A stretch of 64,000 bases of DNA from an uncultured Iamiaceae bacterium (lineage in GTDB: Bacteria > Actinomycetota > Acidimicrobiia > Acidimicrobiales > Acidimicrobilacustridaceae). The notes beneath the pieces are model-generated. The model saw nothing but the letters and a program-made list of their open reading frames with translations. It searched no databases and had not been told where the DNA came from. The position numbers and the translations under genes were made by a program. Position 1 is the stretch's first letter, and every line of letters begins with the position of its first letter. The stretch covers positions 68,413 through 132,412 of the forward strand of contig CAVZVZ010000007.1 of assembly GCA_963778895.1 (NCBI GenBank), in the 5' to 3' direction. Of the stretch, positions 31,103-61,400 are shown in pieces.

Positions 31103-32319
31103 TCAGCGCATGTTGCCGGTGTGGCCCAGGCTGTAGCGGCCCGGTTGGGGCCACACCGTCAAGCCGTGCGGACCTCGGCCGACGGGTATGCGGGCTGCGA
31201 GCTGGCCGGTCGTGGTGTCGAACACGTAGACCTCGCTGTCGTACCGGCCTCCGAGCCACAACTCGCGGCCGTCGGGTGTGAGGTTGCCCATGTCGGGACT
31301 CCCGCCGTCGGGTACCGCCCAGGTCGCGACGATTTGGTTGGTCGCGAAGTCGAGCACGGAGATCGTTCCCGGCCCGTGTGGCGCACCCGGGATCGTGTGC
31401 GATCCACGGTTGATGACGTAGAGCTTCGTTCCGTCCCGGCTCGGGTAGAGCCCATGCGTACCGATACCGGTCGGGATGAAGCCGGTCTGCGTGAAGGAGT
31501 CGCCGTCGACCAGGATGACCCCGTCGGTCATCATCTCGGCGACGTAGAAGGTCTTGCCGTCGGGTGAGACCCGAACATCCTGAGGCATCGTGTCGGCGAC
31601 CGAAATCGAGGACGCCGACGACCTTGCGCTCGACGAGATCGATCTTCACGAGGCGGCCCGAGAACTCACACGTCGCGACCAGATAGCGACCGTCGATCGA
31701 GAAGTCGATGTGATTGATGCCGCCGCACTCGGGAACCTCGAGCTGACTGTGCAGCTCCATCGTCTTGGCGTCCCGGAAGTCGAGGCGTTTCAACGCTTCG
31801 GCCACGACGATGGCCTCGGTTCCGTCCGGCGTGAAGTAGAGGTTGTACGGGTCCTCCACGCGTTGCGCGGGCCCGGGCTCGCCCGTCTTCGGGTCGATGG
31901 GGATCAGCGAGTAGCTCTGGTTGTTGAGCACCCAAAGGGTCGATCCGTCGTAGGACGGCACGACGTGTTGCGGTTCGATCCCGGCGGGGAACGTCCCGAT
32001 GACCTGTTTGGTTGCGACATCGATGACGGTGACGTCGTTCGACAAGCCGTTCGGTACGTAGGCGCGTAGGGGCTGGTCGGCCCAGGCCGGGTTGATCTTG
32101 TCGGCGGCCGCCTCGCTGTAGAGGTTGTGCGGGTCGACGACCGGCGGCATGCCGGGCACGGTGTCCACGCATGGCCCCGGCCGTTGTCGTCGTGGGCGGG
32201 GTGGTGGTGACCGCGGGGGTGTCGCTCGACTGTCCGCGGCCGGTCCCCGAGCAGGCCACACCGGCCGTGAGGACGGCCAAGCCGATCAGGGCGAGCACGG
32301 ATGGGCGCGGGCGTCTCAC
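31103..32319 (-). pseudogene. YVTN-type beta-propeller repeat lipoprotein, two +1 frame changes
   Basis: The lipoprotein signal is MRRPRPSVLALIGLAVLTAGVAC (31666..32319). Propeller blades follow in ORFs 30951..32261 and 31103..31588 (repeated ...SPDG..LYV.N......V.VID...). The joins are at ~32165 and ~31600. Confidence 0.7.
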
Positions 32320-32394: not shown

Positions 32395-34403
32395 TCAGTC
32401 GCGGATGATGAGCTTCGCGGTGCCGGCACCTACCTGGCGGCCGTCGCTGTCCTTGGCGACGATCGAGAAGTAGTGCGTGCCCACCCCGCAGGACGAGCCG
32501 GGATTGCAGACGGTCGTCGAACCGCTGGCCGACGAGCTCGACACGCCCGGTCCGGTGACCTCGACGGTGATCGGTCCGTTGGCCGTGACGGTCCACGAGA
32601 ACGTCGATCCGCCGTCGGCGGCCCGGATCGTGCCCGGGCTCATGGAGTACTGGACGTTGGCGATGATCGCCGGCGGCTTGGTCGTGGTGGTTTCGACACC
32701 GCCACCGCCACCACCCCCACCGGCGCTGCCTCCGCCGCCGCCACCGCCACCCGCGGTGGTGTTGGGCGCGGGTTGGGTCGTCGGCACCGTGGCGGGCGCA
32801 GTGACCGGTGGTGCCGCGGTGGTCGACGTCGTGGACGACGGGGCGCGGGTCGTGGTCGAGCTCTCGACCACGGGTCCGGCGTCGATCGCAGTCTTCTTGT
32901 CGTCTCCGCCGCGGGTGAACACCATGACGAGACCGAGCACGATGACCGCGGCCACGCCGATGCAGGCGGGGATGAGCCACTTGCGACGTGAGTCACCGCG
33001 ATCTGTCGCTCGGCTGGCCACCGGCTCGTGGGCCGGCCCGGTGCTTCGTGGGTCGACGACGGGAGGCACCGGCGGTGCGCTCGACACGGGGGTGACCAGC
33101 GCGGCGAGTGGCATCGCGGTGGTGTCCGCGCCGTTCGGAGCCACGACCGGCTCGACCGTCGGTATGGGGGTGGGTTCAGCGACGGGCGCAGGAGGTGCCA
33201 CTTCGGCGGGCGGTTCGACCACGGGTGCGGCGACGTCGGCCGCGAGCGCCGAGGTTTCGCCCTTGGCGCCGAGGAAGGCGGCGGCGGCTGCTCCGGCCGC
33301 GGCAACGGTGCCGGCGACGGCCGTGCCGGCGGGTGCGGTGCGGTCGCGTGTCTCGATCGGTGCGGACGCCACTTCGGCGACGGGCTCCAGCGCCGGTTGC
33401 GGCTCGGCTCTGGTTCGGGTTCGGGAGCAGGCTCGTGGAGCTCGGGCGCCACCGGTTCCGGCTCGACCGATGCGGTTGGTTCGGGTTCCGGCTCGGGCTG
33501 GGTGCGGCGAACGCTGGTTCGGCCGCAGCAACGCGGCACGCCGGCGGCAGCGACGCCGACGGCGAACGGCGCCCACGAGGTACCCGTGACGCGCCGCTCG
33601 ACGTCAGCGGGGACGGCAACGAGGGGCACCGCCTCGAAGATCTCGATCGCGGGGATGGCGATGAGCGAGCGCGACCGACAGACGGAGCACCCACGGAGAT
33701 GGCCGTGGATCACTCGTACGGCCGTCGAGTCGAACTGGCGGACGTTGTTCGCCTTCAGGTCACGCGTCAGCTCGTCATGATCGGGCTTGCCGCCGGCCCA
33801 GAGCAGTCGAGTGCGCAGCGCGGCCGCCAGGCCTTGGGGTGCCTTGCGGATGATGTCGTCGACGCGGAAGATCGATTCACCGGTTGCGGCTGCGATCTCA
33901 TCGGACGCCAGTGCGTGACGCCAGTGCAGATCGGTCACGTCACGCGCGCGATCGCCGAGTACGTCGAGTGAGTCCCACAGCATCACGCTGATCGAGGGGT
34001 CGGCGCCGAGCGCAACCGGATCGGTGCCGCGCGTCAACCGCTCCGCGGCTCGCTTGGCGCCGCGGTTCGCCTTGCCGAGCGAGCGGGGTCGCGCCGGCAC
34101 ATCGCGTTCGATGGCGCCCATGACGCGAGCGCCGAAGCTCGTGTCGTCGTCGACGAGTTGGCCTTGGAGTGACGTGAAGGTACGCAACATGGCCTCGGCC
34201 GCGGAACGCTCGTCCGCACCACGATGCAGCGCTCGGTCGAAGGCGCCCGGCGACCACTCGGCCACGAGGTGGCCGTAGGCGTCGGCATCGCCGCGCTTCG
34301 CCTGGGCCAGCCACGTGTCGTCGCGTGCCCGACGCCGACGAGCGCGCTGGATGCGGTCACCCGTCTCTGTGGCGCTCGCCTCGTTGGTGCTCTGGTTGCT
34401 CAC
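32395..34403 (-). pseudogene. ECF-sigma-like / zinc-finger anti-sigma-like / single-pass membrane protein with C-terminal Ig-like domain, frame change in the Pro/Glu linker
   Basis: GTG 34403 follows AAGGA. The N-terminus is sigma region-2/4-like (AQAKRGDADAYGHLVAEW..., SDEIAAATGESIFRVDDIIRKA). Then come HLRGCSVCRS, a PEPEPEP linker (join ~33430), a TM helix (WLIPACIGVAAVIVLGLVMVF), an S/T/P-rich region, GGGGGGGGSAGGGGGGGG and a beta-rich C-terminal domain. Confidence 0.55.
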
Positions 34404-34895
34404 GGCTGAGTCCTTCGCCTGCCTCTCGGATGCCGGAGCGGTGGACCAACTCACAGGCTGGTCACCCGTCCGGGCGAGCAGCAGTCGGTGGATCACCCGA
34501 TCGTGGACCGCCCACGATCAACCGTTCTGCCGCTCACGGTTCTCTTCTTCGAGGTTCCTGTCGGACGCGAGGGACCGGTTCTTGAATGCAACAGAGGGTC
34601 AATCCTGGCGAGGAATCCGCTGGTGGCCTGGGTGGAGTGGGCATTCTCACGATCCGTGTCGAGGCGAGTGGGTCCGTACGGCCCATCCCGCCGGAGCCGC
34701 CCTGGATCGGCCCGGGCCGGCCCGATCCGCCCGGCGCCGGTCCCCTGAACAGGGTGTTCAGCGGGGAGGCCACGCGCAGCCGCGACGGCAAAACAACAGT
34801 TGCGTCTGACATCGAATCGCGCCCATCGTGGCCGCGGCCGCACCCGGGGAGCACCACCACCGCCGCCGGGCCCGCGACCGAGGGGGACGAACGAA

Positions 34896-35354
34896 ATGGG
34901 TGTGCTGCGTCGAGCGCGGGCGCCATTCGAGCGGATCATGCTGCACTCGCCGGCGCGCCGACGCTCCTATGACCGGTCGGTCGTCCTGCTGCGGTACCGA
35001 GGCCGCCACACCGGCGCGTTCCACGAGCGGGCGGTCAAGGTGGCCCGGGACGAGTCGACGCTCGTCGCCGTCAGCCCCCGTCGGGCGAAGGACTGGTGGC
35101 ATGATTTCCGCCCGAGCGGACCGGCCGTCGTGGTGCTCGACGATGTGCAGCTCGGCGTGGTCGGCCGCATGGTCGACGGGATCGAGCGGCCGCACGAGGC
35201 GGCGCAGGCGCTGCGCACCTATCTGGACTGGTTTCCCCGAGCGGCCCGCGAGCTCGGCGTGGATCGGGCCCACGATTCCGACGATCTCGAACCGCTGGCC
35301 GCGGGCTTCGTGGCGGTGGTCTTCGACCTGCGGAGCGAGCCGCCCAGCCGCTGA
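34896..35354 (+). CDS. hypothetical protein (distantly resembles deazaflavin-dependent nitroreductase/split-barrel proteins)
   Basis: ATG 34896 follows GAGGGGGA. The 152-aa product carries VVLLRYRGRHTGAFHERAVKVARDESTLVAVS...AKDWWHDF. The family call is weak. Confidence 0.4.
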   Translation: MGVLRRARAPFERIMLHSPARRRSYDRSVVLLRYRGRHTGAFHERAVKVARDESTLVAVSPRRAKDWWHDFRPSGPAVVVLDDVQLGVVGRMVDGIERPHEAAQALRTYLDWFPRAARELGVDRAHDSDDLEPLAAGFVAVVFDLRSEPPSR

Positions 35355-35409
35355 CTCGGAGTTCCGGGGCCGGTCCGGCGCCCGCCGACAGCTTGTCTAG
35401 AGTTGGTCG

Positions 35410-35980
35410 ATGCTCGAGCTGGCCGGCCCCCTAGCCGTCGCTGCGCTCGTCCTCGCCGCGGGTGGTGCGTTCAAGCTGCGCGATCCGGCTCCCACTCGTG
35501 CGATGTGGGAGGCCCTCGGCGTGGGCGGCCCGCGGAGTCGACGGCTGCTCACGTTGCTGTCGGGTGTCGTCGAGCTGGCCTTGGGTCTGGCCACGTTCCT
35601 GCTCGGCGGATGGGTTCTCGGGTTCGCCACGGCGGCGGCGTTCACGATCTTCGCGGTGCTCGCGGCGCGACTCACCCAGCTGCCCGCCGTGTCATGCGGT
35701 TGCTTCGGGAAGCACTCCGGTCGCACGACGAGACTGCACGTGATCATCGATGCCGTCGTCGCCGTGGTTGCGCTCGTGGCGGCGTTGTTCGACGCGCCTG
35801 GATTCCTCGGCGCTCGAGCGGATCTTCCCGGTGCGCGGCATCGCGTTCGTCGGCTTCGCGCTGCTGGGCGCCTGGTTCGTCGTCGCCGCTCTCACGGTGC
35901 TGCCCGAAGCACTGGCCGCCGCCGAGCGCGGACCGCGAACGCCGGCTGTTCGCAGCTTCGACATCACGGGAACACGATGA
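35410..35980 (+). pseudogene. MauE/DoxX-family redox-associated membrane protein, one +1 frame change as assembled
   Basis: It has four TM helices and the MauE-type SCGCFGK motif. The true C-terminus (ERIFPVRGIAFVGFALLGAWFVVAALTVLPE...TGTR*) lies in the +1 frame (ORF 35750..35980), with the join at ~35815. The track ORF 35410..38190 is a read-through artefact. Confidence 0.7.
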
Positions 35981-38190
35981 AGACCCGCGCCGCGCTCGAC
36001 AGCATGACGACGGGTGGGGCGCCCACGTCACGCTTGGTCGACCGAGTCTCGGGACTGTTGGCGCGACGAACCGGGCGGCGCGGCTTCCTCGCGCGTTCGG
36101 CAGTCGTCGGCAGCGCTATTGCCGCGAACCCCATCACCTACGCCCTCAAACCCACCACCGCGTACGCCGCCATCTGTAGTTGCAGCGGCTCGGCCTGCGA
36201 CTGCGGGCAGCTGTGCTGCGACGGCTACACCGAGTTCTGCTGCACGCTCAGCGGCGAGAACAAGTGCCCGCCCGGCACGCAGTTGGGCGGTTGGTGGAAG
36301 GTCGACGGCAGTGGGTTCTGCGGCGGCGGACCTCGCTACTACATGGATTGCAACGCATCGTGCAACGGCTGCGGCTGCGGGGGCAGCGGACTGTGCGGCG
36401 GCGGGTGCTCGGGTACCGGATGTGGTTGTGCGTTCGGCGACTGCAACAACCGCAAGGCCGGGTGCACGATGTTCCGGTACGGCCAGTGCAATCAAGACAT
36501 CGGCTGCCTCGGGCCGATCGTGTGCCGCGTCGTCACGTGTGTGCCGCCCTGGGCCCTCGACGGCTCGTGCACCACGACGGTTCGGGTCGACGGCGCTACC
36601 GCGGGCCACGATCGAGCTTGCCTGCACAGGGTGGTCGGTGGCTTCGATGCCGCGGACGAGGCGGCAGGTGGCGCCCGAGTCAGCGGCTGGGCACTCGACT
36701 TCGACACACAGGCGCCGGTCGACGTCGCGGTCTACGTCGACGGCGGCTACGTCGGTTCGCGTTCGGCCAACACCTACCGGCCGGACGTCGGCGTGGCCTA
36801 CCGCGGTTGGGGTGACAATCACGGCTTCGACTTCACGGTGCCTGTCGGCGGAGGCGCGGTCAAGCAGGTGTGCGTCTGGGGCATCAACGCCGGCGCCGGG
36901 TCGGACAACACGTTCCTCGGTTGTCGCACGGTGCGGCTCTCGACGCCGTTCGGCGCCCTCGACGGAGTCATGGCCGGGTCAGGCTCGATCCGTCTGACCG
37001 GTTGGGCGATCGATCCCGACACCACCAACCCCCTCAAGGTGCATGCCTACGTCGACAACGTGTTCAAGGGTGAGTTCACGGCCAATGCGTTTCGGCCCGA
37101 CGTCGGTTCCGCGTACGGGTACGGCAACAACCACGGGTTCGACATCACCGTTCCCGTCGCGGGTGGCACGCACAACGTGTGCGTGTTCGCCATCAACCAG
37201 GGCGCCGGCAGTGTCAACAACCAGATCGGCTGCCGCACCGTCAACGTCGGTATGCCGTACGGCTCGGTCGACAAAGCCGTGTCGACCGGAGGTGGCTTGT
37301 TCATCCAGGGTTGGGCGGTCGACCCCGACACGACCGATCCGATCGTCGTGCACGCCTACGTCGACAATGTGTTCAAGGGAGAGTTCACCGCCAACGTCTC
37401 ACGCCCGGATGTGACCTCCGTGTACCCCAGCGTCGGGCCGAACCACGGGTTCGAGTTCACGGTCCCGGCCGCACCCGGGCAACACAACCTGTGCGTGTAC
37501 GCCATCAACAACGCCGAAGGCGGCAACCCGATCATCGGTTGTCGCACCGCCAACGTGCAGACCGGTGACCCGTTCGGCGCGGTCGACAGCATCGTGCCGG
37601 GCCCCGGCACCGTACGGATGAAGGGCTGGGTGATCGATCCCGACGCCACCGGCCCCGTCAAGGTGCACGTCTACATCGACGACACGTTCTCCGGCGAGTT
37701 CGTCGCCGACGGTTCTCGGCCGGACGTCGCGTCGGCGTACCCCGGCTACGGACCGGTGCACGGCTTCGACATCAGCATCCCCACGTTCATCGGCTTCCAA
37801 CAGGTGAGCGTGTACGGGATCAACCTCGGTACCGGGGTCAACAAGCTCGTCGGGGCCAAGATGATCGTGGTCGGCGGGAACCCGTACGGCGCGCTCGACT
37901 CGGCGGTCGGACAGGCCGGCGGGATCAAGGTCAGCGGCTGGGCGATCGATCCGGACACGGCCGACTCGGCCAACGTGCACGTGTACGTGGACGGCACATT
38001 CCGCGGCGAGTTCACCGCCGATGGCACCCGCGCCGACGTGGGCGCCGCCTATCCCGGGTACGGCAATGCCCACGGGTTCACCGCCACGGTGCCGGCGCCG
38101 TCGGGCTCACACCAAGTGTGCGTGTACGTGATCAACCTCGGATGGGGCGGCAATCAGCTGATTGCGTGCCGAACGACGAACGTGCCCTGA
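35977..38190 (+). CDS. Tat-exported cysteine-rich (methylamine-dehydrogenase light-chain-like) protein fused to five tandem 104-aa repeats
   Basis: Intact 737 aa. The ATG overlaps the MauE-like stop (ATGA). The twin-arginine signal is TGRRGFLARSAVVGSAIAA. Residues ~66-216 contain 26 Cys, including NKCPPGTQLGGWW (compare MauA NCPPGTKLA..SW). Residues 218-737 are 5 repeats. Confidence 0.75.
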   Translation: MKTRAALDSMTTGGAPTSRLVDRVSGLLARRTGRRGFLARSAVVGSAIAANPITYALKPTTAYAAICSCSGSACDCGQLCCDGYTEFCCTLSGENKCPPGTQLGGWWKVDGSGFCGGGPRYYMDCNASCNGCGCGGSGLCGGGCSGTGCGCAFGDCNNRKAGCTMFRYGQCNQDIGCLGPIVCRVVTCVPPWALDGSCTTTVRVDGATAGHDRACLHRVVGGFDAADEAAGGARVSGWALDFDTQAPVDVAVYVDGGYVGSRSANTYRPDVGVAYRGWGDNHGFDFTVPVGGGAVKQVCVWGINAGAGSDNTFLGCRTVRLSTPFGALDGVMAGSGSIRLTGWAIDPDTTNPLKVHAYVDNVFKGEFTANAFRPDVGSAYGYGNNHGFDITVPVAGGTHNVCVFAINQGAGSVNNQIGCRTVNVGMPYGSVDKAVSTGGGLFIQGWAVDPDTTDPIVVHAYVDNVFKGEFTANVSRPDVTSVYPSVGPNHGFEFTVPAAPGQHNLCVYAINNAEGGNPIIGCRTANVQTGDPFGAVDSIVPGPGTVRMKGWVIDPDATGPVKVHVYIDDTFSGEFVADGSRPDVASAYPGYGPVHGFDISIPTFIGFQQVSVYGINLGTGVNKLVGAKMIVVGGNPYGALDSAVGQAGGIKVSGWAIDPDTADSANVHVYVDGTFRGEFTADGTRADVGAAYPGYGNAHGFTATVPAPSGSHQVCVYVINLGWGGNQLIACRTTNVP
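36628..38187 (+). repeat. Five tandem 312-bp (104-aa) coding repeats
   Basis: Units start at aa ~218, 322, 426, 530 and 634. The shared pattern is (F/Y)G(A/S)(L/V)D....G.(I/V).(L/V).GWA(I/V)DPDT..P..VH.YVD..F.GEF.A...RPDV...Y.G.G..HGF......G.H.VCV(Y/F)(A/G)IN.G.G.N..IGCRT.NV. Confidence 0.85.
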
Positions 38191-38203
38191 GGAGGTAGAC
38201 CGC

Positions 38204-39013
38204 ATGCTCACACTCGTCATCCTCGAGGGTCTGGTGATCGCCGTGCTCGGCGTGCTGGTGGTGGGCCTACTCCGGAGCCACGCCGAGATCCTGCGCCGGC
38301 TGCACGAGCTGGGTGCCGGCATCTACGACGAAGAGGCGGACGGCGCCACGGCGAACGGGAACGGCGTCACCTCGACCATCGAGCTCGCAGAGCGGCCGAA
38401 GATTCGCACGCGCGATGGCGTGGCCGAACCGCGTGAGGTGGCGACGGTCGGCGGACATGACGTCAGCGGCGTCACGCCCACCGGCAACGGCAAAGCCGTT
38501 GGCGTCGTGGGCACCGAGCATTCGACCTTGCTCGCGTTCTTGTCGAGCGGATGCGGCACTTGTGGCGACTTCTGGCGCGCGTTCGGGCGGGGCGAGGCCG
38601 ACGCCTTGCCGGGACGCGATACCCGGCTGGTGATCGTGACGAAGAGCCCTGAGGAAGAAAGCGTGTCAGCCGTACGCGAGCTGGCCACCAGCGAGCACGT
38701 CACCGTGATGTCGTCCCAGGCCTTCGACGACTACGGGGTACCGGTGAGCCCGTACTTCATCCTCGTCGACGGGCCATCGGGCCAGGTCGTGGGCGAGGGT
38801 GCGGCCGGCAACTGGTCGCAGGTCGCCAATCTCTTGCGTCAAGCCGCCGCCGACGCCGGCATTGCCTTGGAAGGCGAGTCGGTGCGCAGCACCAAGCGAC
38901 CCCGTGCCGGTACCGAGCGCGAGGGTCGAGCGGACGAGGACCTGTTGGCCGCGGGCATACGCCCCGGCCATCCGAGTCTGTATCCCGAGCCCCGAACCGA
39001 CGACGAGGAGTAG
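38204..39013 (+). CDS. membrane-anchored thioredoxin-fold protein (MauD/TlpA-like, CGTC active site)
   Basis: ATG 38204 lies 8 nt after GAGGAGG. The N-terminal TM helix is LTLVILEGLVIAVLGVLVVGLL, and the redoxin-like core LLAFLSSGCGTCGDFW...SPYFILVD follows. A charged C-terminal tail ends the protein. Confidence 0.7.
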   Translation: MLTLVILEGLVIAVLGVLVVGLLRSHAEILRRLHELGAGIYDEEADGATANGNGVTSTIELAERPKIRTRDGVAEPREVATVGGHDVSGVTPTGNGKAVGVVGTEHSTLLAFLSSGCGTCGDFWRAFGRGEADALPGRDTRLVIVTKSPEEESVSAVRELATSEHVTVMSSQAFDDYGVPVSPYFILVDGPSGQVVGEGAAGNWSQVANLLRQAAADAGIALEGESVRSTKRPRAGTEREGRADEDLLAAGIRPGHPSLYPEPRTDDEE

Positions 39014-39018
39014 CGCGC

Positions 39019-39498
39019 GTGGCCCGGCTGGAAGCGTTCGGATTGGTGGCAGACCCACCGAAGGGTTGGGACGGCGAGATCTATCGCCGCGATGCTGCGT
39101 TGCCCGACGGCGTGTCGGCGTTGTTCGGCTCGACCGAAGTGGTCACGCCCATCATGCACATGGCCAACTTCCCGTTGCCGGCCGAGCGCGGCGACTACGG
39201 CGGCGGCGCAGTCGAGTTGATGGGACGCGGCGGAGTGTTCGTGTCGCTACTCGAACATCCTCCGCGCGAGGGAGATACGGCATTGTTCGCCGGCAAAGGG
39301 ATCCCGTGGCCGTTGAGCTCGTCGGACTTCGATCCACAGCAAATGCAACGCACGATCGGCGGTCAGGCCGGTTGTCAACGTTTCTTCACTCACAACGGCC
39401 GGGCGTTCTGCTTGTACGTCGCCATCGGCAGCTACGGCTCGCGCGCCGTGCTGGTGCGCGAGGTCAACAACGCGCTGGCCTCGGTCGACCTCGCCTAG
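39019..39498 (+). CDS. hypothetical protein (last gene of the Mau-like cassette)
   Basis: Intact 159-aa ORF starting 5 nt after the previous stop. I recognise no family. Confidence 0.5.
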   Translation: MARLEAFGLVADPPKGWDGEIYRRDAALPDGVSALFGSTEVVTPIMHMANFPLPAERGDYGGGAVELMGRGGVFVSLLEHPPREGDTALFAGKGIPWPLSSSDFDPQQMQRTIGGQAGCQRFFTHNGRAFCLYVAIGSYGSRAVLVREVNNALASVDLA

Positions 39499-42223: not shown

Positions 42224-43034
42224 GTGCTGCCGACTGCCGCGGATCCGACCACGATCGTGGACCTCGATCGGTACCCGATCGACGATCTGGATCGCGCCGC
42301 GACCCTGATCACATCCGCGTCGGCCCGACTGGCGGACAAGGGAGTGGCGATCCTGCCGGGCTTCCTGCGCGACGCGGCTCTCAGCGAGATCGTGGCCGAG
42401 GCCGATCGGTTGGCACCGAACGGTCATCATCGAGGACGTGCCCGGCACGCCGTACCTGGGACTGCCCGACGAGTCCTTCCCGACGGATCATCCCCGACAG
42501 TACGTCTCGCGGTCGGCGTTGACGGCGGTGGCCTACGACCTGTTTCCCGCCGAATCCTTGCTGCGTGCCCTATACGAATGGGAACCCTTGATGGAGTTCG
42601 TCGCCGCGGTGCTCGGCCGGCGCCCGCTTTATCGCTACGCCGATCCGTTTGGCGCGCTGAACGTGGCGGCGATGTACGACACCGACGAGCTCGGTTGGCA
42701 TTTCGATCAGACCGACTTCGTGGTGTCGATCGCTCTGCAGTCGAGTGATGGAGGTGGGGACTTCGAAGCCGCCGCACGCGTCCGCGGTCCGGACGACGAA
42801 CGGTACGACGACGTGGCTCGGGTGCTCGCCGGTGATGCGACGGAGTTGATCGAAACCATCCCCATGACGCCGGGAACACTCATGTTGTTCGAAGGCCGCC
42901 ACTCGTTGCACCGGGTGACACCGATCCAGGGGTCGACACCCCGCCATGTCGCGTTGCTCGCCTACGACACGAGGCCCGGCACCGACAGCACCGAGTTGCT
43001 GAAGCTGGTTCGGTACGGGCGGTTGCCCGAGTGA
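42224..43034 (+). pseudogene. Fe(II)/2-oxoglutarate-dependent oxygenase, one frame change as assembled
   Basis: The pieces are 41846..42748 (real from GTG ~42224: VLPTAADPTTIVDLDRYPIDDL...LPGFLRDAAL) and 42438..43034. The facial triad is visible as WHFDQTD ... GRHSLHRV. The join is at ~42430. Confidence 0.65.
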
Positions 43035-43546: not shown

Positions 43547-44582
43547 CTAAACCTGCCGTCGACCCGGGTCGGGTCCGACCTGCACCACGACCTTCCCCGT
43601 GTTCTCGCCGGTGAACAACATGTTCAGCGCGCGGGCGCATTGCTCGAGTCCCGGCACCACCTCTTCGCGCCACTGCAGACGACCCTCGTCGGCCCACTCG
43701 TGGAGTTGGGCCATGCATTCGGGGAACCGATCCCAGTGGTCGAGGGTGATGAAACCCTCCATGCGGCCGCGTCGGCCGATGAGGTTCAGGTAGTTGGACG
43801 GACCAGGTGGGCGGCCCTGGTCGTTGTACACCGAGATCGCGCCGCACAGCACCACCCGGCCGTGCATGTTCAGCCCACCGAGCACCGCGTCGAGGATCTT
43901 GCCGCCGACGTTGTCGAAGTACACGTCGACGCGATCGGGGCAGAGCTCGCGCAGGCGCGCCGCGAGATCGTCGGTGCGATGGTTGATGCAGCCGTCGAAC
44001 CCGAGCTCGTCGACCACCCACGCACACTTCTCGTCGGTGCCGGCGATACCGACGACCCGGCATCCCTTGATCTTCGCGATCTGACCCACGATCGAACCGG
44101 TGGCGCCGGCGGCGGCTGACACGACGACGGTCTCACCTGGTTTCGGCTGACCGATGTCGAGCAGGCCGAAGTACGCCGCGGCACCGGTCGAGCCGAACAC
44201 GCTCAACATCGGCAGCATGTCGGTGTCGCGGTCGAGGAGCGTGGTGTACAAGTCGTCGCGTACGACGGCGTACTCCTGCCAGCTGCCCGAGCGAGATGAC
44301 GACGTCGCCGACTTCGTACGCGTCGCACTTCGACGCCACGATCTCGCCGACCGAGCTGGATCGGACGACCTCGTCGATCTCGACGGCGGGCAAGTAGCCC
44401 TCGCCCTTGTTGAGCCAGGTGCGGACCGTGGCGTCCATGCCCAGGTAGACGTTGCGCATCAACGCGTCACCGTCGGCCAAGTCGGGGACCGGCCGTTCGA
44501 CCAGCTCGACGTCGTCGTCGCGGACCAATCCTTCGGGTCGTTGCTTGAGCACGACCTGGCGGTTGAGGGATGGGATCTCCAT
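43547..44582 (-). pseudogene. NADP-dependent oxidoreductase (MDR, YncB/prostaglandin-reductase-like), one +1 frame change
   Basis: The N-terminal piece is 44133..44582 (NRQVVLKQRPEGL...YLGMDATVRTW). The C-terminal piece is 43547..44251 (VVVSAAAGATGSIVGQIAKIKGCRVVGIAG). The join is at ~44270. Confidence 0.8.
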
Positions 44583-44665
44583 GGCAAAGGCTTAGCCGGA
44601 AATCACCGATCGGGGCGACGCCGCGACGGGCGGCGTGCGGCGGCGCGCCGTACCCTCGCGAGTCC

Positions 44666-45490
44666 ATGGTCGCAGTGCGCCGTTCGGTGAGCATCGTCGT
44701 CGGCCTCTTGACGTTGACGATCGTGGCCAGCTGCTCGACGTCGACCGGGCGCGACGTGGTCGAAGCACCCGTCACGACCGCGACGCCCTTGCCGTCGACG
44801 ACCCAGCCGCCCACCACCGTGCCCCCGACTACCGCGACGACCGAACCGCCGCCCCCGCCGACCTGGGGCGAGGGCTCGGAGGGCGATGTCGTGTTGCACG
44901 TGCAGCAGCGATTGACCGCACTCGGATACCGGCCGGGCGACGTCGACGGCCACTACGGGTCGGCGACGGCCTCCGCGGTGATGGCGTACCAGAAGCACGA
45001 AGGGCTGCAACGCGACGGCGTGACCGGGCCGGAGGTCTTGGCTGCCATCGACGGCCCCCAGACGGGCGCGGGCCCGCGGGGTGGAGCCGGGCTCGAGATC
45101 GACCTCGACCGCCAGATCATGTTCGTCGTCTCGCTCGACGGGACGTACCAGATCCTGAATGTGTCGACGGGGAACAACCAGACCTATCGCCATCCGGCGG
45201 GATACACCGCGGTGGCGGTGACACCGACGGGGACCTACGCCGTCGGGCGCAAGATCGATGCCGAGGAGCACGCCCCCCTGGGCACGCTGTACCGGCCCAT
45301 GTACTTCCACGGCGGTTACGCAGTGCATGGTTCGCGCAGCGTTCCGGGATATCCCGCGAGCCACGGTTGCGTGCGCGTGAGCTACGAGGACGAGGACTGG
45401 TTGTTCCCGATCATCCGACCGGGGACGCCGGTGACGCTGTACGGCGGTGGCGACCAGCCCGCTCCCGTGGGCACCGACGCCGGCGCCTGA
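44666..45490 (+). CDS. L,D-transpeptidase (YkuD) lipoprotein with peptidoglycan-binding domain
   Basis: The ATG is at 44666. The lipobox is LTIVASC. The PG_binding_1 repeat is VLHVQQRLTALGYRPGDVDGHYGSATASAVMAYQ, and the YkuD catalytic motif is GYAVHGS...ASHGCVRV. Confidence 0.85.
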   Translation: MVAVRRSVSIVVGLLTLTIVASCSTSTGRDVVEAPVTTATPLPSTTQPPTTVPPTTATTEPPPPPTWGEGSEGDVVLHVQQRLTALGYRPGDVDGHYGSATASAVMAYQKHEGLQRDGVTGPEVLAAIDGPQTGAGPRGGAGLEIDLDRQIMFVVSLDGTYQILNVSTGNNQTYRHPAGYTAVAVTPTGTYAVGRKIDAEEHAPLGTLYRPMYFHGGYAVHGSRSVPGYPASHGCVRVSYEDEDWLFPIIRPGTPVTLYGGGDQPAPVGTDAGA

Positions 45491-52323: not shown

Positions 52324-52436
52324 GGAAAATCTGAGAGCCGCTCGCAAATAATTCGTAAGACTCATCAGACAGCGTCCGATTCCTCCGATAGCTAGATGCG
52401 GTTTCTTCGCGTCCGTGCGTATAGGAGGTTCCCTCG

Positions 52437-55400
52437 GTGGTTGTTCGTAGGCGGGTGACGATCGATCCTGGATCGGTCGACGGCAAGATTGCGACACGAC
52501 GTGTTCGGCGCGTCGGCGCGTTCGCCGTCGTGGTTCTCCTCGCCACACTGCTCGTGCAGGGACTCACTTCTTCGCCGGCGTCGGCGGGTCCGGCTCCCGT
52601 CATGGTCGGCTTCATTCCATTGCCGGCTGATCAGTTCCAAGACGTGATGGAGAACGTGAACACCGCCGCGGACTCGACGCTCGACTTCACCGTGGGGATC
52701 ACCAACTCGGGCAACGGCTCGATCATCTACTACGACCACTGGGAAGACGGGTATGAAGCCGACATCGCGAACCCCGTGCAGGCGACGACGGAGATCTGGG
52801 GCGATGGCAACCCGGCGAACGGTGATGCGGGCGCAGCCAACCGCTGCGGGGCGCGGTGCGCGGGCGACCTGCTGACGCCCGGCGACGTGTTCGTGCTCCG
52901 CAACAACATCACCACGCCGCGCAACCCGGCGACTGTTCTGTTCGACGGCCGCGACAAGGTCGCGTCGACCCGCGGGTTCACGATCACCGCTGGAGGGTTC
53001 TCGACTCCGCTCGGTCCGGTGCTCGCCGGCGCGGTGTCGGCCTACGACACGTCGAAGTACGGCATCGACTACATCGCACCCGTCGGGCAGAACACCCCGA
53101 CCCCCGCCAACACCACACCCGCGTTCGAGACGTCGAGTCTCATCGTGATGGCCGCGCAGGACGGCACCAACGTGAAGGTCGACGCCAACGCCGACGGCAC
53201 CTTCGAGACCAACCAGACGATCAACCAGGGTCAGGTGGTCTACATCGACGGCGGCGTGATGCAGGGTGCGCACGTCGTCTCGGACAAACCGGTGCAGGTG
53301 CACGAAGGCACCGGCGACGTCGGCAGCAACTACGAGTCCCGCTGGTTCACGCTCTTTCCGACACCGCTGCTGTCGAGCGACTACCTGAGTCCGGTGGGCT
53401 CAGGCGCCGACAACCAGCGGACGATCGTCTACCTCTACAACCCGAGCGGCTCCGCCATCACCGTCACCCCGACGTGTACGGGATGTTCGGGGACCATCTC
53501 GGTCGCGTCGCACGCGACCCAGAGCTTCGCCACACCGCTCAACCAGGCAGTGCGGTTCCAGAGTGCGGGCAACGTGCCGTTCATCGCGGTCGGCGCCATG
53601 GGCGCGCAGAGCGGCGCGGCACCGGGCTCCGCCGGTGACAACTCCACGGCCTACGACTGGGGCTACACCCTCGTGCCGACCGGGCTGCTGACGACGCAGG
53701 CGATCCTCGGTTGGGCCCCGGGTAACTCCGGCAACCCCCCGATCAACCCCGCCGGCAACCGCGACGACGACCCCGTGTGGGTGACGTCGCTGACGGCGAC
53801 GACGATCCACGTCGACCTCGACGGCGATCCGTCGACGGGGACGATCGGCACGGCCGACTGCAGCGGTGCCCGCCACGATCAGGACATCCCCGTCGCGGCG
53901 CTGGCCTCGACGCGCATCTTCGACTCGACCGACGGGGACATGACCGGAGCCCGCATCTACACCTGCGACGGCACGAAGATCTCCGGGGCGTGGGGCGAGG
54001 ATCCGGTCAACGCTCCGACCGGCTCTCCCGGTCTCGACGCCGGCTACGTGCTGATCCCCACGACGACGATGATCGTCAACAAGACGGCGGCGGTCTTCAC
54101 CGATGCCAACGGCGACGGCAAGCTGAGCCCGGGTGACGTGATCGAGTACGACATCGCGGTTGCCAACGCAGGCAACTTGGCCTTCACCTCGGTGAATGCA
54201 CTCGATGTCCTGCCTCCAGGCGTCACCTATCAGGCCGGTTCGACCGTGCTCGACGTCAACGGCACGATCACGCCGATCGCAGACAGCGCGGTGCCGCCGG
54301 CCTCGACGGTGTTCCCGCTCGACGAGGCGGGTGCGTCGCTGCCTGGCATCCCGGCAGGCGCGACGGTGCACGTGCGATTCAAGACGACCGTGGTGACTCC
54401 CAGGCTCGCGGCGGGGACGATCGTCCAGAACGTCGGCTGCGTGTCCGCCGTCGAGGACAACGCCAACGCCAATCCCGTCAGTGACTGCGACACCCTCGAG
54501 TCGCCGATGACGGCCGCCGACCTCTCGCTGACCAAGACCCAGACCGCGGCGCCGCAGTTCGTGGGCGACAACGCGGTGTTCCATCTGGTGCTCAGCAATG
54601 CCGGCCCTGACACCGCGACGGGTGTCGCGGTCACGGACCTGCTTCCTGCCGGCACGACGTTCGTCGGTGCAAACCCGAGCCAGGGCACCTACAACAGCGG
54701 CACCGGGTTGTGGAACATTGGCTCGGTCGCGAACGGCGCGACGGCCACGATCGACATCACCGCGACGATCAACGCGACGTCGGTGACGAACTTCGCGCAG
54801 GTGACGGCCGCGACGGCAGCCGACCCCGATTCGCAGCCGGGCGAGAACGCGCTCGGTCCCGCCAACCCGCCGGATCAGGACGACGAAGCCAGCGCGACGG
54901 TCACGGTCGCCCCGCGTGCCGACCTGGAGCTGCAGAAGTCGCTCACGGCCGGACCGGATCTGAACGGCAACACGACGTTCCTCATCACGTTGACCAACAA
55001 GGGCCCGTCCACGGCTGCGAACACGGTCGTGCAGGACACGCCGCCCCCCGGGTCGAGCTTCGTGTCGGCCACACCGTCGGTCGGCGGGTTCGTGAGCGGC
55101 ACCAACCAGTGGAGTGTGTTGAGCCTTGCGCCCAACACCAGCGCGACGCTGTCGGTCACCTACAAACTCACGACCTTCCCGAGCGCCAACTTCGCTCAGG
55201 TGATCAGCGCGGGTCAGGCCGACCCGGACTCGCAGCCGGCGGAGAACCCGCTCGGCCCGGCCAACCCACCCGATCAGGACGACGAGGCCCAAGCGGCGAT
55301 CCCGGCGTCGGCTGACCTGTCGCTGACCAAGGTCGAGACGTCCCACCCCACCTTCACCGGTGGCACCGCGACGTTCGTCGTCACGGTGGCGAACGCGGGG

Positions 55401-58400
55401 TACGCGGCGGCGACGGGGGTGCAGGTCACGGATGTCGTACCTCCGGGACTGGCGGTCGTGACGACCACACCGTCGGCGGGCACGTACAACGCCGGCACCG
55501 GCATCTGGAACGTCGGCACCGTCAATGCCGGCGCAAACGCCACGCTGACGATCACCGCGGTGGTCACGCAGCCCGGCACGATCACGAACACCGCCGAGAT
55601 CACCGCGGCGAGCCCGACCGACCCCGACTCCACGCCGAACAACCACAACCCCGCCGAGGACGACCAGGCTTCGGCGTCGGTGACCACCACCGGCGGCACC
55701 CTGGGCGATCGCGTCTGGTTCGACGTCGACGCCGACGGCGTACAGGACGCCGGCGAGCCCGGCCTGAATGGCGTGACCGTGAACATCGTGTGGGGTGGAC
55801 CCGACGGTTCGATCGGGACGGCGGACGACCTCGCCTACGTCGCGACCACCGACGCCAGCGGCCTCTGGTCGAAGACCGACCTTCCCTCGGGCAACTACCG
55901 CGTGTCGGTAGCTCCGGCCACGTTGCCGTTAGGCGTCACCGTGCCGACCTACGACCTCGACGGCGTCGGCACACCGAACACCGCGTCGCTCGCGTTGGCG
56001 GGTGGCGCTACGCGCAGCGACGTCGATTTCGGCTACCGCGGTAGCGGCACGATCGGCGACACCGTTTTCGTCGACGTCAACGCCAACAACACGCCCGACC
56101 CCGGTGAGGGTGCGGCAGGTGTTGACATGACCGCCACGTGGTTCGGACCGAACGGCGTGCTCGGAGGTGGCGACGATCTCGTCTACACGACGACGACGAA
56201 CGGCGCCGGCGGGTACTCGTTCACCGGCTTGCCGGCCGGCGGCTTCCGCGTATCCGTCGACGCCACGGATCTTCCCGCCGCGGCAGTGCCGATCGTCGAC
56301 CCCGATGGTGGCAACGACAACACCAGCACGTTGACGCTGGCAGCGGGCGCCACGAACAACAACCAAGACTTCGGCTACGTCGTGCCGGCGATCGACCTGT
56401 CGGTCACGAAGACCGACGGCGGCGCGACCACCGTTCCGGGCGGAACGGTGGCCTACACGATCAACTACGGCAACAGCGCGACGGCGACGACGCCGTCCAC
56501 CGGTGTGACCCTCACCGAGGCGATCCCCGCCAACTCGAGCTTCAACGCCGGTGCGTCGACCGCCGGATGGGTGTGCGGCGCCAGTACCTGCACGCTGAAC
56601 GTCGGCACGCTGGCCCCGGGCGCGAGCGGCAGCGTGACCTTCGCGGTCACGGTTGCGAGCACGATCCCTGCGGGCGTCGGTCAGATCAACAACACGGTCA
56701 CGATCGGCGATGACGGCGCTCATGGCACCGATACGAACCCCGGCAACAACACTGGCACCGACTTCACCCCGGTCACGGCGGCGCCGGATCTCACGGTGTC
56801 GAAGTCCGATGGTGGCGCGACGACGGTTCCGGGTGGGACGGTGGCGTACACGATCAACTACGGCAACGTCGGGAATCAGGGTGCGACGGGTGTGGTGTTG
56901 ACGGAGACGATTCCGGCCAACTCGAGCTTCAACGCCGGCGGCTCGACGGCCGGTTGGTCGTGCGGTCCGAGCACGTGCACGTTCACGGTCGGCTCGCTGA
57001 ATGCGGGCGCGTCCGGTTCGGTGACGTTCGCCGTGACAGTTGTGAACCCGGTCGCGGCCGGCGTGAGTCAGATCTCGAACACGGTGAGCATCGCGGACGA
57101 CGCGCAGAACGGGCCTGATCCGACGCCGGGCAACAACACGGGCACGGATACGACGCCCGTCCTGGCCGCCCCGGACCTCACGGTCACCAAGACCGACGGC
57201 GGAGTCACCACGACCGCCGGGGGAACGGTGGCGTACACGATCAACTACGCGAACGTCGGGAACCAGGGTGCGACCGGTGTGGTGTTGACGGAGACGATTC
57301 CGGCCAACTCGACGTTCAATGCCGGGGGCTCGACGGCCGGTTGGTCGTGCGGTGCGAGCACGTGCACGTTCACCGTCGGCTCGCTGAACGCCGGTGCGTC
57401 GGGCTCGGTGATCTTCGCGGTCACGGTGGCCAATCCCGTTCCCGCGGGCGTCACGCAGATCGCGAACACGGTGACCGTGGGGGACGATGGTCAGAACGGT
57501 TCGGATCCGACGCCGGCGAACAACACGGGTACGGATACGACGCCGGTCACGGCGGCGCCTGATCTCACGGTGTCGAAGTCCGATGGTGGCGCGACCACGG
57601 TTCCGGGTGGGACGGTTCCGTACACGATCAACTACGCGAACGTCGGGAACCAGGGTGCGACGGGTGTGGTGTTGACGGAGACGATTCCGGCCAACTCGAC
57701 GTTCAACGCCGGTGCCTCGACGGCCGGTTGGTCGTGCGGTGCGAGCACGTGCACGTTCACGGTGGGCTCGCTGAACGCCGGTGGGTCCGGTTCGGTGATC
57801 TTCGCGGTCACGGTGGCCAATCCCGTTCCCGCGGGCGTCACGCAGATCGCGAACACGGTGACCGTGGGGGACGACGGTCAGAACGGACCGGATCCGACGC
57901 CGGCGAACAACACGGGAACCGATACGACGCCGGTCACGGCGGCGCCGGATCTCACGGTGTCGAAGTCCGATGGGGGCGCGACATCGGCCCCCGGGGGCAC
58001 CGTCGCCTACACGATCAACTACAGCAACGTCGGGAACCAGGGTGCGACGGGTGTGGTGTTGACGGAGACGATCCCGGCCAACTCGACGTTCAACGCGGGC
58101 AGCTCGACGGTCGGTTGGTCGTGCGGTGCGAGCACGTGCACGTTCACGGTGGGCTCGCTGAACGCCGGTGCGGTCCGGTTCGGTGATCTTCGCGGTCACG
58201 GTGGTTAGCCCGGTTCCCGGCGGGTGTGACGCAGATCGCGAACACGGTGACCGTGGGGGACGATGGTCAGAACGGACCGGATCCGACGCCGGGGAACAAC
58301 ACGGGAACCGATACGACGCCGGTGACGGCGGCGCCGGATCTCACGGTGTCCAAGTCCGACGGCGGCGTCTCCACGACCGCGGGCGGCACGGTGGTGTACA

Positions 58401-61400
58401 CGATCAGCTACAGCAACGTGGGTAACCAGGGTGCGACGGGTGTGGTGCTGACCGAGACCGTGCCGGCCAACTCGACCTTCAATGCCGGGGCGTCGGCCGC
58501 CGGCTGGTCGTGTGTGGCGTCGACCTGCACGCTGAACCTCGGCGGCGTCGGCGCGGGGGCGAGTGGTTCGGTGGCCTTCGCGGTCACCGTGAACACGCCC
58601 CTCCCCGCGGGGGTCCAACAGATCGCCAACACGGTGACGATCGCCGACAACGGCCAGAACGGTCCGGATCCGACGCCGGGTAACAATACGGGGACGGATA
58701 CGACGCCGGTCACGGCGGCGCCTGATCTCACGGTGTCGAAGTCCGATGGTGGCGCGACGACGGTTCCGGGTGGCACGGTGGCGTACACGATCAACTACGG
58801 CAACGTCGGGAATCAGGGTGCGACGGGTGTGGTGTTGACGGAGACGATTCCGGCCAACTCGACGTTCAACGCCGGGGGCTCGACGGCGGGTTGGTCGTGC
58901 GGTGCGAGCACGTGCACGTTCACGGTGGGCTCGCTGAATGCGGGCGCGTCCGGTTCGGTGACCTTCGCCGTGACTGTCGTCAACCCGGTTCCGGCGGGTG
59001 TGACGCAACTCTCCAACACGGTCTCGATCGCCGACAACGGCCAGAACGGACCGGATCCGACGCCGGCGAACAACACGGGCACCGATACGACGCCGGTCAC
59101 GGCGGCGCCCGATCTCACGGTGTCGAAGTCCGATGGCGGCGTCTCCACGACCGTTCCGGGCGGCACGGTGGCGTACACGATCAGCTACGGCAACGTCGGG
59201 AACCAGGGTGCGACGGGTGTGGTGTTGACGGAGACGATTCCGGCCAACTCGACGTTCAACGCCGGGGGATCGACGGCGGGTTGGTCGTGCGGTGCGAGCA
59301 CCTGCACGTTCACCGTCGGCTCGCTGAACGCCGGTGCGTCCGGTTCGGTGACCTTCGCCGTGACGGTCGTGAACCCGGTCGCCGCCGGTGTGACCCAGCT
59401 CGCCAACACGGTCTCGATTGCCGACAATGGCCAGAACGGACCTGATCCGACGCCGGCGAACAACACGGGCACCGACACCACGCCAGTCCTTGCGACCCCC
59501 GACCTCACGGTCACCAAGAGCGACGGCGACGTCTCCACCACGCCCGGCGGCACCGTCGTCTACACGATCAGCTACAGCAACGTGGGTAACCAGGGTGCGA
59601 CGGGTGTGGTGCTGACCGAGACCGTGCCGGCCAACTCGACCTTCAATGCCGGGGCGTCGGCCGCCGGCTGGTCGTGTGTGGCGTCGACCTGCACGCTGAA
59701 CCTCGGCGGGGTGGCCGCGGGAGCGAATGGGTCGGTGGCCTTCGCCGTCACCGTCAACTCACCGCTACCCGCCGGCGTTCATCAAATCGCCAACACCGTG
59801 ACGATCGCCGATGATGGCCAGAACGGTGCCGATCCGACGCCGGGTGACAACACGGGCAGCGACACCACGCCCATCGTCGCAGTACCCGATCTCTCGGTGA
59901 CGAAGTCCGACGGCGGAGCGCAGGTCGCACCGGCGGGCACGGTCGCCTACACGATCAACTACGCGAACAACGGCTCGATCGGGGCCACCGGTGTGACGCT
60001 GACCGAGACGATCCCGGCGAACACCACCTTCGCGGCCGCATCGTCATCCGCCGGTTGGACCTGCGGCGCCAGCACGTGCTCGTACACCGTGGGCCCGCTC
60101 GCGGCGGGCGCGAGCGGCAGTGTCACCTTCGGGGTCCACGTCGGCTATCCGCTGGACCCCGGCACCGACCACGTGCACAACTCCGTGGCGATCACCGACG
60201 ACGGCACGAATGGCACCGATCCCGATCTGAGCGACAACACCGGTACCGACGACACGCCGGTGCTCGGCGCGACCGTCGGCGACACCGTGTTCTTCGACAG
60301 CAACGCCAACGACGCCCCGGACGCTGGTGAAGGCATCGCCGGTGCCACGGTGACGGTGACGTGGTCCGGCCCGAACGGCACGCTCGGCGACGGCGACGAC
60401 ATCGTCACGTCGACCACGACGGATGCCAACGGTCAGTGGTCGGTCACCGGACTCCCGACCGGTCTCGTCGGCGTCGCGGTCGTGCCGCCCATCAGTGGTG
60501 TGACGAACTCCGTGGATCCCGACGGCGGGAACGACGCCGCCAGCACTTTGACGCTCGCGCTCGGTGAAAGCCGGTTGGATCAGGACTTCGGCTTCGTCGG
60601 CACCGGCAGCATCGGCGACACGGTGTTCCTCGACCTCGACGGTGACGGCGTGCAAGATGCGGGCGAGCCTGGTGTGGCCGGCGTGACGGTGACATTGCTG
60701 CGCGACAACAACGACGACGGCACCTACGAGACCACGGTGGACAGCACGACCACCGACGGGTCAGGTCACTACAGCTTCGGTGCTCTGTACGCCGCGCCCT
60801 ACCGGGTCGTCGTCTCCGTTCCCGCGGGCTACGACAGCTCCTCGCCTACGCAGGTCGACCACGACCTCACCGCGGGCGAGTCCTTCGACGACGCAGACTT
60901 CGCGATCCTCGGCGCTTCGATAGGCGACCGCACCTGGAACGACCTCGACGGAAACGGCGTGCAGGATGCCGGCGAGCCGGGTCGGGCCGGCGTCACCGTC
61001 ACGTTGCTCGACGGTGACGGAGCCACGGTGGCCACCACGACGACCGACGCCGGCGGCGCGTACAGCTTCGACGGCTTGGCCGCGGGCAACTACGAGGTCC
61101 AGTTCGGCACCGTTGCCGGATCGGTGATCACGATCCCCGACGCCACCAGCGACGGCGCCGACTCCGACGCCGCGGTGAGCGACGGTCGGACCGGCACCTT
61201 CGCGGTCGCGGCGGGAGCCACAGTGACCAATGTCGACGCCGGGTACTACGCGACGAGCTCGCTCCAAGGTCTCGTGTTCGATGACCTCGACGGTGACGGC
61301 GCCCACGGAGCGGGTGAGCCCGGCCTTGCGAACGTGTCGATGACCCTGACCGGTACCGACGATCTCGGCACTGCCGTCTCGCTGTCGACCACCACAGATG

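Follow-up and report, generated by a model that had tools for sequence, protein, structure and literature searches.

The methylamine dehydrogenase small subunit, MauA, is best known from methylotrophic Proteobacteria. MauE, which is encoded next to it, was shown to be a DsbB-like disulfide generator only in 2026: it replaces DsbB in E. coli by means of a CXC motif followed by F-G (Gonzalez et al., bioRxiv 10.64898/2026.03.05.709764). In that work MauD was proposed as the DsbA-like partner of MauE. MauE was called a generalist, MauA being present in only about 10% of the species that have MauE (bioRxiv 10.64898/2026.03.05.709764). Here, we describe a gene located at positions 35977-38190 (forward strand) of a 64,000-nucleotide stretch of DNA, referred to as the window, from an uncultured Iamiaceae bacterium (GenBank assembly GCA_963778895.1, contig CAVZVZ010000007.1, positions 68,413 to 132,412). 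Its product of 737 residues carries a twin-arginine translocation (Tat) signal, a head domain very rich in cysteines and five C-terminal repeats. The gene is flanked by genes for a MauE-like and a MauD-like protein. As regards structure and biogenesis, the head is probably a very disulfide-rich client dedicated to this MauE/MauD oxidative-folding cassette and exposed on the cell wall.

The locus resembles the published MauE pathway in pairing a CXC-F-G MauE with a thioredoxin-fold CxxC partner, for which a DsbB/DsbA-like relay was proposed (bioRxiv 10.64898/2026.03.05.709764). In contrast with the generalist MauE described there, the cassette is fixed, has four to five genes and contains one putative, very disulfide-rich client, which in one lineage is fused to MauE itself. 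It also includes a conserved, probably cytoplasmic protein, and about 70% of loci have a further membrane protein. MauE, the MauD-like thioredoxin and the Tat signal are of known kinds, whereas the client domain, the fixed cassette, the extra cytoplasmic partner and the MauE-client fusion are undescribed.

Results

A cysteine-rich head domain behind a Tat signal

Positions 36172-36624 (+) encode 26 cysteines, 31 glycines and 3 tryptophans in 151 residues. The cysteines are found at residues 67 to 215 of the product. The original prediction, made from the letters of the window alone, had described 26 cysteines in about 150 residues behind a Tat signal, and our translation gave exactly the same string. 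Cysteine makes up about 1.0% of the residues in the 18 other coding open reading frames (ORFs) of the window. The enrichment (binomial P ~2e-24) is therefore not due to chance. Because the head is conserved across hundreds of genomes, it is a real feature and not a chance ORF.

The features of the gene are the following.

35977..38190 (+), 737-codon gene for the protein with Tat signal, cysteine-rich head and five repeats (737 aa); GC content at third codon positions 0.84
35977..36168 (+), twin-arginine signal peptide, with RR at 36076-36081
36169..36636 (+), cysteine-rich head domain, aa 65-220, 26 cysteines; conserved, AlphaFold2 (AF2) model with pLDDT 84 and pTM 0.80
36181..36219 (+), optional N-terminal cysteine quartet C69, C74, C76, C81; missing in about 25-30% of the family, presence correlations r=0.79-0.99
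36220..36300 (+), MauA-like segment DGYTEFCC..G.N.CPPGT..GWWK; 22 columns in hhalign, the sole MauA-like stretch of the domain
36361..36420 (+), Gly/Cys-rich run C129, C132, C134, C140, C144; variable, indel-prone loop
36637..38187 (+), five tandem Ig-like repeats of about 104 aa each; weak Big_7 match

The N-terminus reads GRRGFLARS, followed by a hydrophobic stretch containing AVVGSAIAA and by a conserved A-Y-A triplet (36160-36168), a likely signal-peptidase site in which A62 is nearly invariant across homologues. The two arginines are present in 119 of the 119 homologues that cover the column. The family profile aligns this N-terminal stretch with the Tat signal of the nitrous-oxide reductase NosZ in the PDB profile search, and NCBI labels homologues as [quoted passage not shown]. 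With its RR motif, hydrophobic region and AxA site, the product bears the predicted signature of a Tat substrate.

No Pfam or NCBIfam match was found for the cysteine-rich part, either in the full protein or in the isolated domain. Searches of PDB sequences with the head domain (phmmer and profile hmmsearch) returned only the match to the NosZ Tat signal and one chance match. The AF2 model of the head is compact and confident, and was obtained without any ligand. Foldseek, whose performance on small, irregular folds rich in disulfides we judge to be weak, found nothing in the PDB at E<8 for the model.

The family is large. A word-indexed search retrieved 616 proteins, and 483 clusters at 50% identity came out of an exhaustive profile search at E<=1e-3, 382 of them with E<=1e-10. 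In a scan using one genome per species, at least 564 species genomes carry it. The carriers are almost all metagenome-assembled genomes of Acidimicrobiia, together with the isolates Actinospongicola halichondriae and Salinilacustrithrix flava. One member belongs to Nakamurella alba, of the class Actinomycetes. In their source records the proteins are called "hypothetical protein", or are named after the Tat signal or the C-terminal module. Literature searches on MauE combined with cysteine-rich, twin-arginine or Acidimicrobiia revealed no description of the family. The family defined by the head domain is large, unnamed and uncharacterised, and in Acidimicrobiia it is nearly ubiquitous.

The closest relative of the window region is a contig labelled Vicinamibacteria (L006, CAVUPP010000011.1), with 81-84% DNA identity and synteny from about 33257 to 38981. 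The remaining close relatives are all Acidimicrobiia. Other odd taxon labels among the related loci are Gemmatimonadaceae (L045) and Acidobacteria (L077). These three labels probably result from mis-binning or mis-classification.

Probable core disulfides and invariant aromatic residues

Conservation in the head was calculated from an alignment of 250 domains. Sixteen core cysteines (67, 80, 88, 89, 97, 115, 125, 149, 151, 156, 163, 171, 183, 188, 198 and 215) are at least 91% conserved. The ten others are variable: the quartet 69, 74, 76 and 81 is found in about 70% of members, the cysteines of the run (129, 132, 134, 140 and 144) in 58-82% and C177 in 65%. Domains contain 16 to 28 cysteines and the total is even in 95% of them. 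Variable cysteines tend to be gained or lost together (C69/C81, r=0.99; C140/C144, 0.82; C129/C144, 0.69). Even totals and loss in correlated pairs argue for disulfides and against a fixed set of metal ligands. We infer that the head would be cross-linked by 8 core disulfides and up to 5 optional ones, the maximum in the family being 13-14 in total.

The Gly/Cys run, which the original prediction had likened to a metallothionein, turned out to be the least conserved part of the head. It is deleted in several subfamilies, and its five cysteines do not form a conserved set of ligands as would be expected of a metallothionein-like or metal-cluster domain. It is probably a loop stapled by disulfides. 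The high content in cysteine and glycine and the CxC and CxxC spacings do recall metallothioneins and other cysteine-rich metal binders. Unlike these, the head is predicted to be extracytoplasmic, is accompanied by an oxidising partner system, loses the cysteines of its run in pairs and has a core with conserved aromatic residues and a confidently predicted ordered fold.

Outside the cysteines, N95, P98, G105, W106, W107, R120, D124, F166, R167, Y168, G169, R184 and T208 are invariant or nearly so. For Y121, Q170, D205 and H211, conservation is 91% or higher (92% for H211). The CPPGT motif followed by tryptophan, to which the earlier reading had drawn attention, corresponds to CPPGT at residues 97-101 and GWW at residues 105-107. 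C97, P98, G105, W106 and W107 are invariant in the 250 domains. The second tryptophan mentioned in that reading, a possible partner in a tryptophan tryptophylquinone (TTQ), is W192. Its column holds Trp in 81% of the domains, Tyr in 10% and Val in 8%. The conservation of tryptophans that was to be looked for in homologues thus exists at W106 and W107 and does not extend to W192. Judging from conservation, a ligand-binding or catalytic surface is probably made up of W106, W107, K108, R120, Y121, D124, F166, R167, Y168, Q170, R184, T208 and H211.

A conserved cassette with MauE and a MauD-like thioredoxin

The presence of MauE- and MauD-like partners, also part of the original prediction, was confirmed on both sides of the gene. 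The partner genes are the following.

35410..35980 (+), MauE-like membrane protein, proposed disulfide-generating oxidase; PF07291 E=5.5e-13
38204..39013 (+), MauD-like membrane-anchored thioredoxin-fold protein; CGTC at 38552-38563, GGAGG Shine-Dalgarno sequence 9 nt before the start
39019..39498 (+), conserved 159-aa protein with no signal peptide; present in 72 of 84 loci, AF2 pLDDT 90

The active-site motif of the window MauE is SCGCFG (CGCFG at 35695-35709). It fits the published active-site logo, as does the C.C[FYW]G motif found in 72 of 78 cassette MauEs. The expected MauE stop codon, TGA at 35978-35980, overlaps the ATG of the cysteine-rich gene at 35977.

The MauD-like protein has an N-terminal transmembrane segment, and in the family alignment C117 and C120 of its CxxC are invariant. 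TIGR02661 (MauD) is matched by 22 of the 33 aligned family members, with a best E of 4.7e-7, and is the only recurrent family. The window's own MauD-like protein, which is outside these 33, matches no family, including TIGR02661 at E<=1. The three best of four weak PDB profile matches are thiol-disulfide oxidoreductases; the matches include BF1870, StoA and DsbC, and the CxxC is aligned in the alignments with BF1870 and StoA.

An iterative HMM search of 84 related loci gave the census of the cassette. It detected the MauD-like gene at 78 loci, MauE at 75 (no further than 6 kb away) and the 159-aa gene at 72. Sufficient flanking DNA was available for 56 loci, and in 52 of these the three partner genes are all present on the same strand. 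Thirty-nine of these complete loci also contain an extra membrane protein of about 200 residues, a gene that the window lacks. Outside the cassette no neighbour is conserved, the next gene cluster being found in only 7 loci. No gene for a cofactor enzyme was found in the cassette. Of all the clues, the operon is the strongest.

The same five genes occur in a different class. In Nakamurella alba (L084, WLYK01000019.1, 5118-9588), their order is MauE, MauD-like, 159-aa, Cys-rich-LGFP and membrane protein. A hand count gives 18 cysteines in the homologous stretch of the Nakamurella head that was compared. This cassette offers a cultured organism in which the system could be studied. In one lineage of Acidimicrobiia, MauE and the cysteine-rich domain are naturally fused in a protein of 624 residues, which has a clean linker between them and an RR motif in its interior (P0259 cluster; L085:1237-3111). 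Since the cluster contains 7 sequences, all of 624 residues, across 11 contig records, the fusion is real. From its sequence, it is a candidate for a membrane protein inserted by both the Sec and Tat routes.

Orphan copies of the cysteine-rich gene were found at three loci (L009, L050 and L075), with no MauE, MauD-like or 159-aa gene nearby. The same holds for L043, where little downstream sequence is available. The orphans are probably paralogues served in trans.

The 159-aa protein has no family, Pfam or PDB sequence match and no enzyme signature. As it has no signal peptide, it is probably cytoplasmic. C131 is the only invariant residue among its cysteines and histidines. Search for structural similarities using Foldseek revealed only weak matches with Tsi3, PsbP and MucB (E ~0.01, TM 0.34-0.42), which are non-enzymatic binding proteins. 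The protein might act as a binding protein, chaperone or adaptor for the reduced precursor before Tat export, a role that we suggest with little confidence.

The extra polytopic membrane protein, of about 200-300 residues, is found in 50 of the 84 related loci and in about 70% of cassettes, usually between the MauD-like and 159-aa genes (for example L002:10205-10837 and L084:8680-9588). It has no Pfam match. We considered a CcdA-like thiol transporter and dropped this idea, given that WSPCG occurs in only 15 of 58 members and that Pfam gives no match.

In the window, the MauE ORF has no in-frame stop and reads into the cysteine-rich gene, giving a 926-aa ORF at 35410-38190. The last transmembrane helix and the C-terminus of MauE (…GIAFVGFALLGAWFVVAALTVLPEAL…TGTR*) lie in the +1 frame (35785-35980). 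Comparison with loci L001 and L006 places an indel near 35825-35865. This frameshift is probably an assembly error. A YncE-like beta-propeller gene at 31103-32261 (-) is also split over two frames, near 31590-31645, both halves matching PF21783 (profile positions 15-138 and 198-331). Two apparent frameshifts within 5 kb suggest an indel-prone assembly, perhaps from long reads, or pseudogenes.

C-terminal modules

In the window, the five repeats that follow the head span 36637-36948, 36949-37260, 37261-37575, 37576-37887 and 37888-38187, and four of them contain one cysteine pair each. A repeat of this Ig-like type follows the head in 54 of 83 related loci. Among 106 representatives of the family, the modules found after the head are LGFP (24), CWB2 (4), SLH (4), DUF4214 (3), ricin-B (2), FG-GAP (1) and fn3 (1). 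Members of about 280 residues have a short propeller-blade-like tail after the head, which is probably what their precomputed PF26607 label covers. Most of these C-terminal partners are modules that anchor to the wall or bind glycans, so that display of the head on the cell wall is most likely.

Resemblance to MauA

Like MauA, the head is a small, probably disulfide-dense and, as predicted, mostly beta domain with a Tat signal and with MauE and a MauD-type membrane thioredoxin as neighbours. Both also contain DG-x-C-x-C-x-G-x3-CPPGT followed, 5-7 residues on, by an invariant tryptophan. They differ in the number of cysteines, 16-28 in the family and 12 in MauA. Unlike MauA, the family head occurs in Acidimicrobiia and Nakamurella, is fused to wall-binding modules or Ig repeats, and has no MauB heavy chain, MauG or amicyanin.

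We retrieved 120 MauA-family proteins, all carrying PF02975, and built a MauA HMM from 121 sequences. The cysteine-rich protein has no PF02975 match at E<=1, and no MauA chain appears among the PDB sequence or profile matches of the family at E<=10. The MauA HMM scores the 250 head domains no better than shuffled or reversed sequences. Homology to MauA at the HMMER level was rejected on this ground.

In a profile-profile comparison with hhalign, 22 columns of the family profile (DGYTEFCC..G.N.CPPGT) aligned to MauA (DG.lC.CCGG...CPPGT) with a score of 22-24, a probability of 6-10% and P of 0.003-0.007, P-values that are post hoc because MauA was picked after the motif had been noticed. In shuffle tests of the columns, with real scores of 22.1-22.4, 2 of 200 shuffles equalled the real score against the whole MauA profile. 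Residues 78-128 of the family scored 22.4 against the N-terminal half of MauA, a value reached by none of 100 column shuffles. Residues 145-199, compared with the C-terminal half that holds the TTQ residue Trp108, scored 8.4 for a null mean of 10.0. A global hhalign comparison of the two families gave no alignment. A permissive one leaves most cysteines colinear with MauA and W106/W107 near MauA Trp57; confidence is nil beyond the motif, and the column of Trp108 holds Gly, Ala or Val in the family. With respect to the TTQ pair (Trp57 and Trp108 in Paracoccus numbering), the family thus has an invariant Trp57-like W106/W107 and no counterpart of Trp108 or of the region around it.

From these comparisons, the parallel with MauA drawn in the original prediction stands at the level of the motif, whose resemblance is real and somewhat above chance in a composition-matched null. 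Membership of the MauA family is unsupported by every formal test, there being no significant sequence, profile or fold match past about 22 columns. The window and the related loci examined contain no gene for MauB, MauG or amicyanin. The YncE-like propeller, 4 kb upstream, was considered as a MauB-like heavy chain and rejected: it matches the YNCE family and not MauB, lies on the other strand and lacks conservation across the related loci. The MauE/MauD context speaks only weakly for MauA ancestry, given that MauE is a generalist.

Discussion

Proposed biogenesis

We propose the following pathway. The precursor would be made in the cytoplasm, where the 159-aa protein may hold it reduced and export-competent. 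The cysteine-rich protein would then be exported through Tat and its 16-26 head cysteines oxidised outside the membrane, the MauD-like thioredoxin introducing or shuffling disulfides with its CGTC site. MauE, a quinone-linked membrane oxidase with a CGC site, would re-oxidise the MauD-like thioredoxin. This order of the relay is our inference; the activity of MauE was established by others. The knotted head would be held on the wall by its C-terminal part, which consists here of five Ig-like repeats and, in relatives, of LGFP, SLH, CWB2, ricin-type or propeller-blade modules. There, the invariant aromatic and charged patch may bind or act on a ligand.

The following points weigh against this proposal. 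Export through Tat is left unexplained for a domain that could not form its disulfides in the cytoplasm, a puzzle shared with MauA. The fold matches of the 159-aa protein are weak, with TM scores below 0.42. Finally, MauE being regarded as a generalist, its position next to the gene could mean a folding system of general use, not a dedicated one.

If correct, the cassette would supply an actual example of a natural MauE client beyond methylamine metabolism, exported by Tat, with 8-13 disulfides and present in at least 564 species genomes. The system is tractable and bears on how a protein that needs many disulfides transits through Tat and on the folding of very cysteine-rich surface proteins in Actinomycetota. 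The function of the head likely matters for the envelope biology of Acidimicrobiia, which are abundant and poorly studied. [quoted passage not shown]

Alternative explanations

The head could be a very divergent but true MauA homologue, serving at the cell surface as a redox or catalytic subunit, with a quinone derived from W106 and/or W107. The shared DG..C.C..G...CPPGT..W motif, rarely equalled by shuffled profiles (hhalign P ~0.005), fits this idea, as do the invariance of both tryptophans, the Tat signal, the many probable disulfides, the neighbours and the colinear cysteines of the permissive alignment. The gene order in Nakamurella, with MauE, the MauD-like gene and the cysteine-rich gene further downstream, recalls mauE-mauD-mauA. 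We nevertheless regard a true homologue as very unlikely, because of the absence of PF02975 and PDB fold matches, the low hhalign probability, the HMM scores at the level of shuffles and the missing counterpart of the Trp108 half, W192 being no substitute. The loci also lack MauB, MauG and amicyanin, and no radical-SAM or flavoprotein maturase was found in the window or in related loci. The rarity of MauA among species with MauE points the same way. An even number of cysteines further argues against a Cys-Trp cross-link of the cysteine tryptophylquinone (CTQ) type. Such a cofactor is found in QhpC, the gamma subunit of quinohemoprotein amine dehydrogenase, which, like the head, is small and cysteine-rich; it carries a Trp-derived cofactor and is exported along with its partner proteins. 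QhpC has no signal peptide of its own, and its cysteines are engaged in thioether links that the radical-SAM enzyme QhpD introduces. In contrast, no QhpD-, QhpE- or QhpG-like gene is found near the family, and the even cysteine count fits disulfides. A related and highly improbable idea is that the head is an ancient offshoot of the MauA lineage in which W106-W107, perhaps together with Y121 or Y168, are converted without MauG into a redox cofactor of a new, protein-derived kind. It would imply a wall-anchored quinoprotein or electron-transfer module in Acidimicrobiia, matured by MauE and the MauD-like protein alone. Nothing found here points toward the novel quinone cofactor.

Binding of a metal or of an iron-sulfur-type cluster, loaded in the cytoplasm, would account for Tat export, which is typical of cofactor-loaded proteins, and would make the head a metallothionein-like or electron-transfer module. 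The domain is 17% cysteine, with a GCGCGG...GCSGTGCGC run, and CopC and P-type ATPase genes lie within 6 kb at one related locus (L001). Neighbours outside the cassette are, however, not conserved. The conserved partners form an oxidising, disulfide-forming system that is hard to square with reduced metal-binding thiolates, inspection of the translation shows no ferredoxin-type CxxCxxCxxxCP motif, and there is no Pfam metal-domain match. Considering also the poor conservation of the run and the paired, even cysteines, we see only a slim chance for this explanation. Analysis of sequence, family and gene context gave no sign of a metal or quinone cofactor for the head. It is unlikely, too, that the head is a small extracellular enzyme acting on cell wall or glycan, autolysin-like or lytic, with the disulfide knot as a mere scaffold. 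LGFP, SLH, CWB2, ricin-B and propeller-blade modules, to which the head is fused, usually accompany wall-active enzymes, and several polar residues are invariant or nearly so (D124, R120, R167, R184 and T208, with H211 at 92%). No likeness to any hydrolase or lyase was found in sequence or fold, and a pattern rich in W, Y, F and R equally suits a binding surface. A dedicated disulfide-rich client of MauE and the MauD-like thioredoxin is thus the reading that we retain as probable.

Other genes of the window

Two genes located a few kb downstream are not conserved with the cassette. One encodes a HalD-like protein of the 2-oxoglutarate-dependent oxygenase type (42438-43034, +) and the other an L,D-transpeptidase (YkuD) with a PG_binding_1 domain (44567-45490, +). 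Further on, two adjacent genes, 52425-58208 and 58187-62671 (both +), encode giant surface proteins of 1927 and 1494 residues containing DUF11, SdrD-B, SpaA-like and CarboxypepD_reg repeats.

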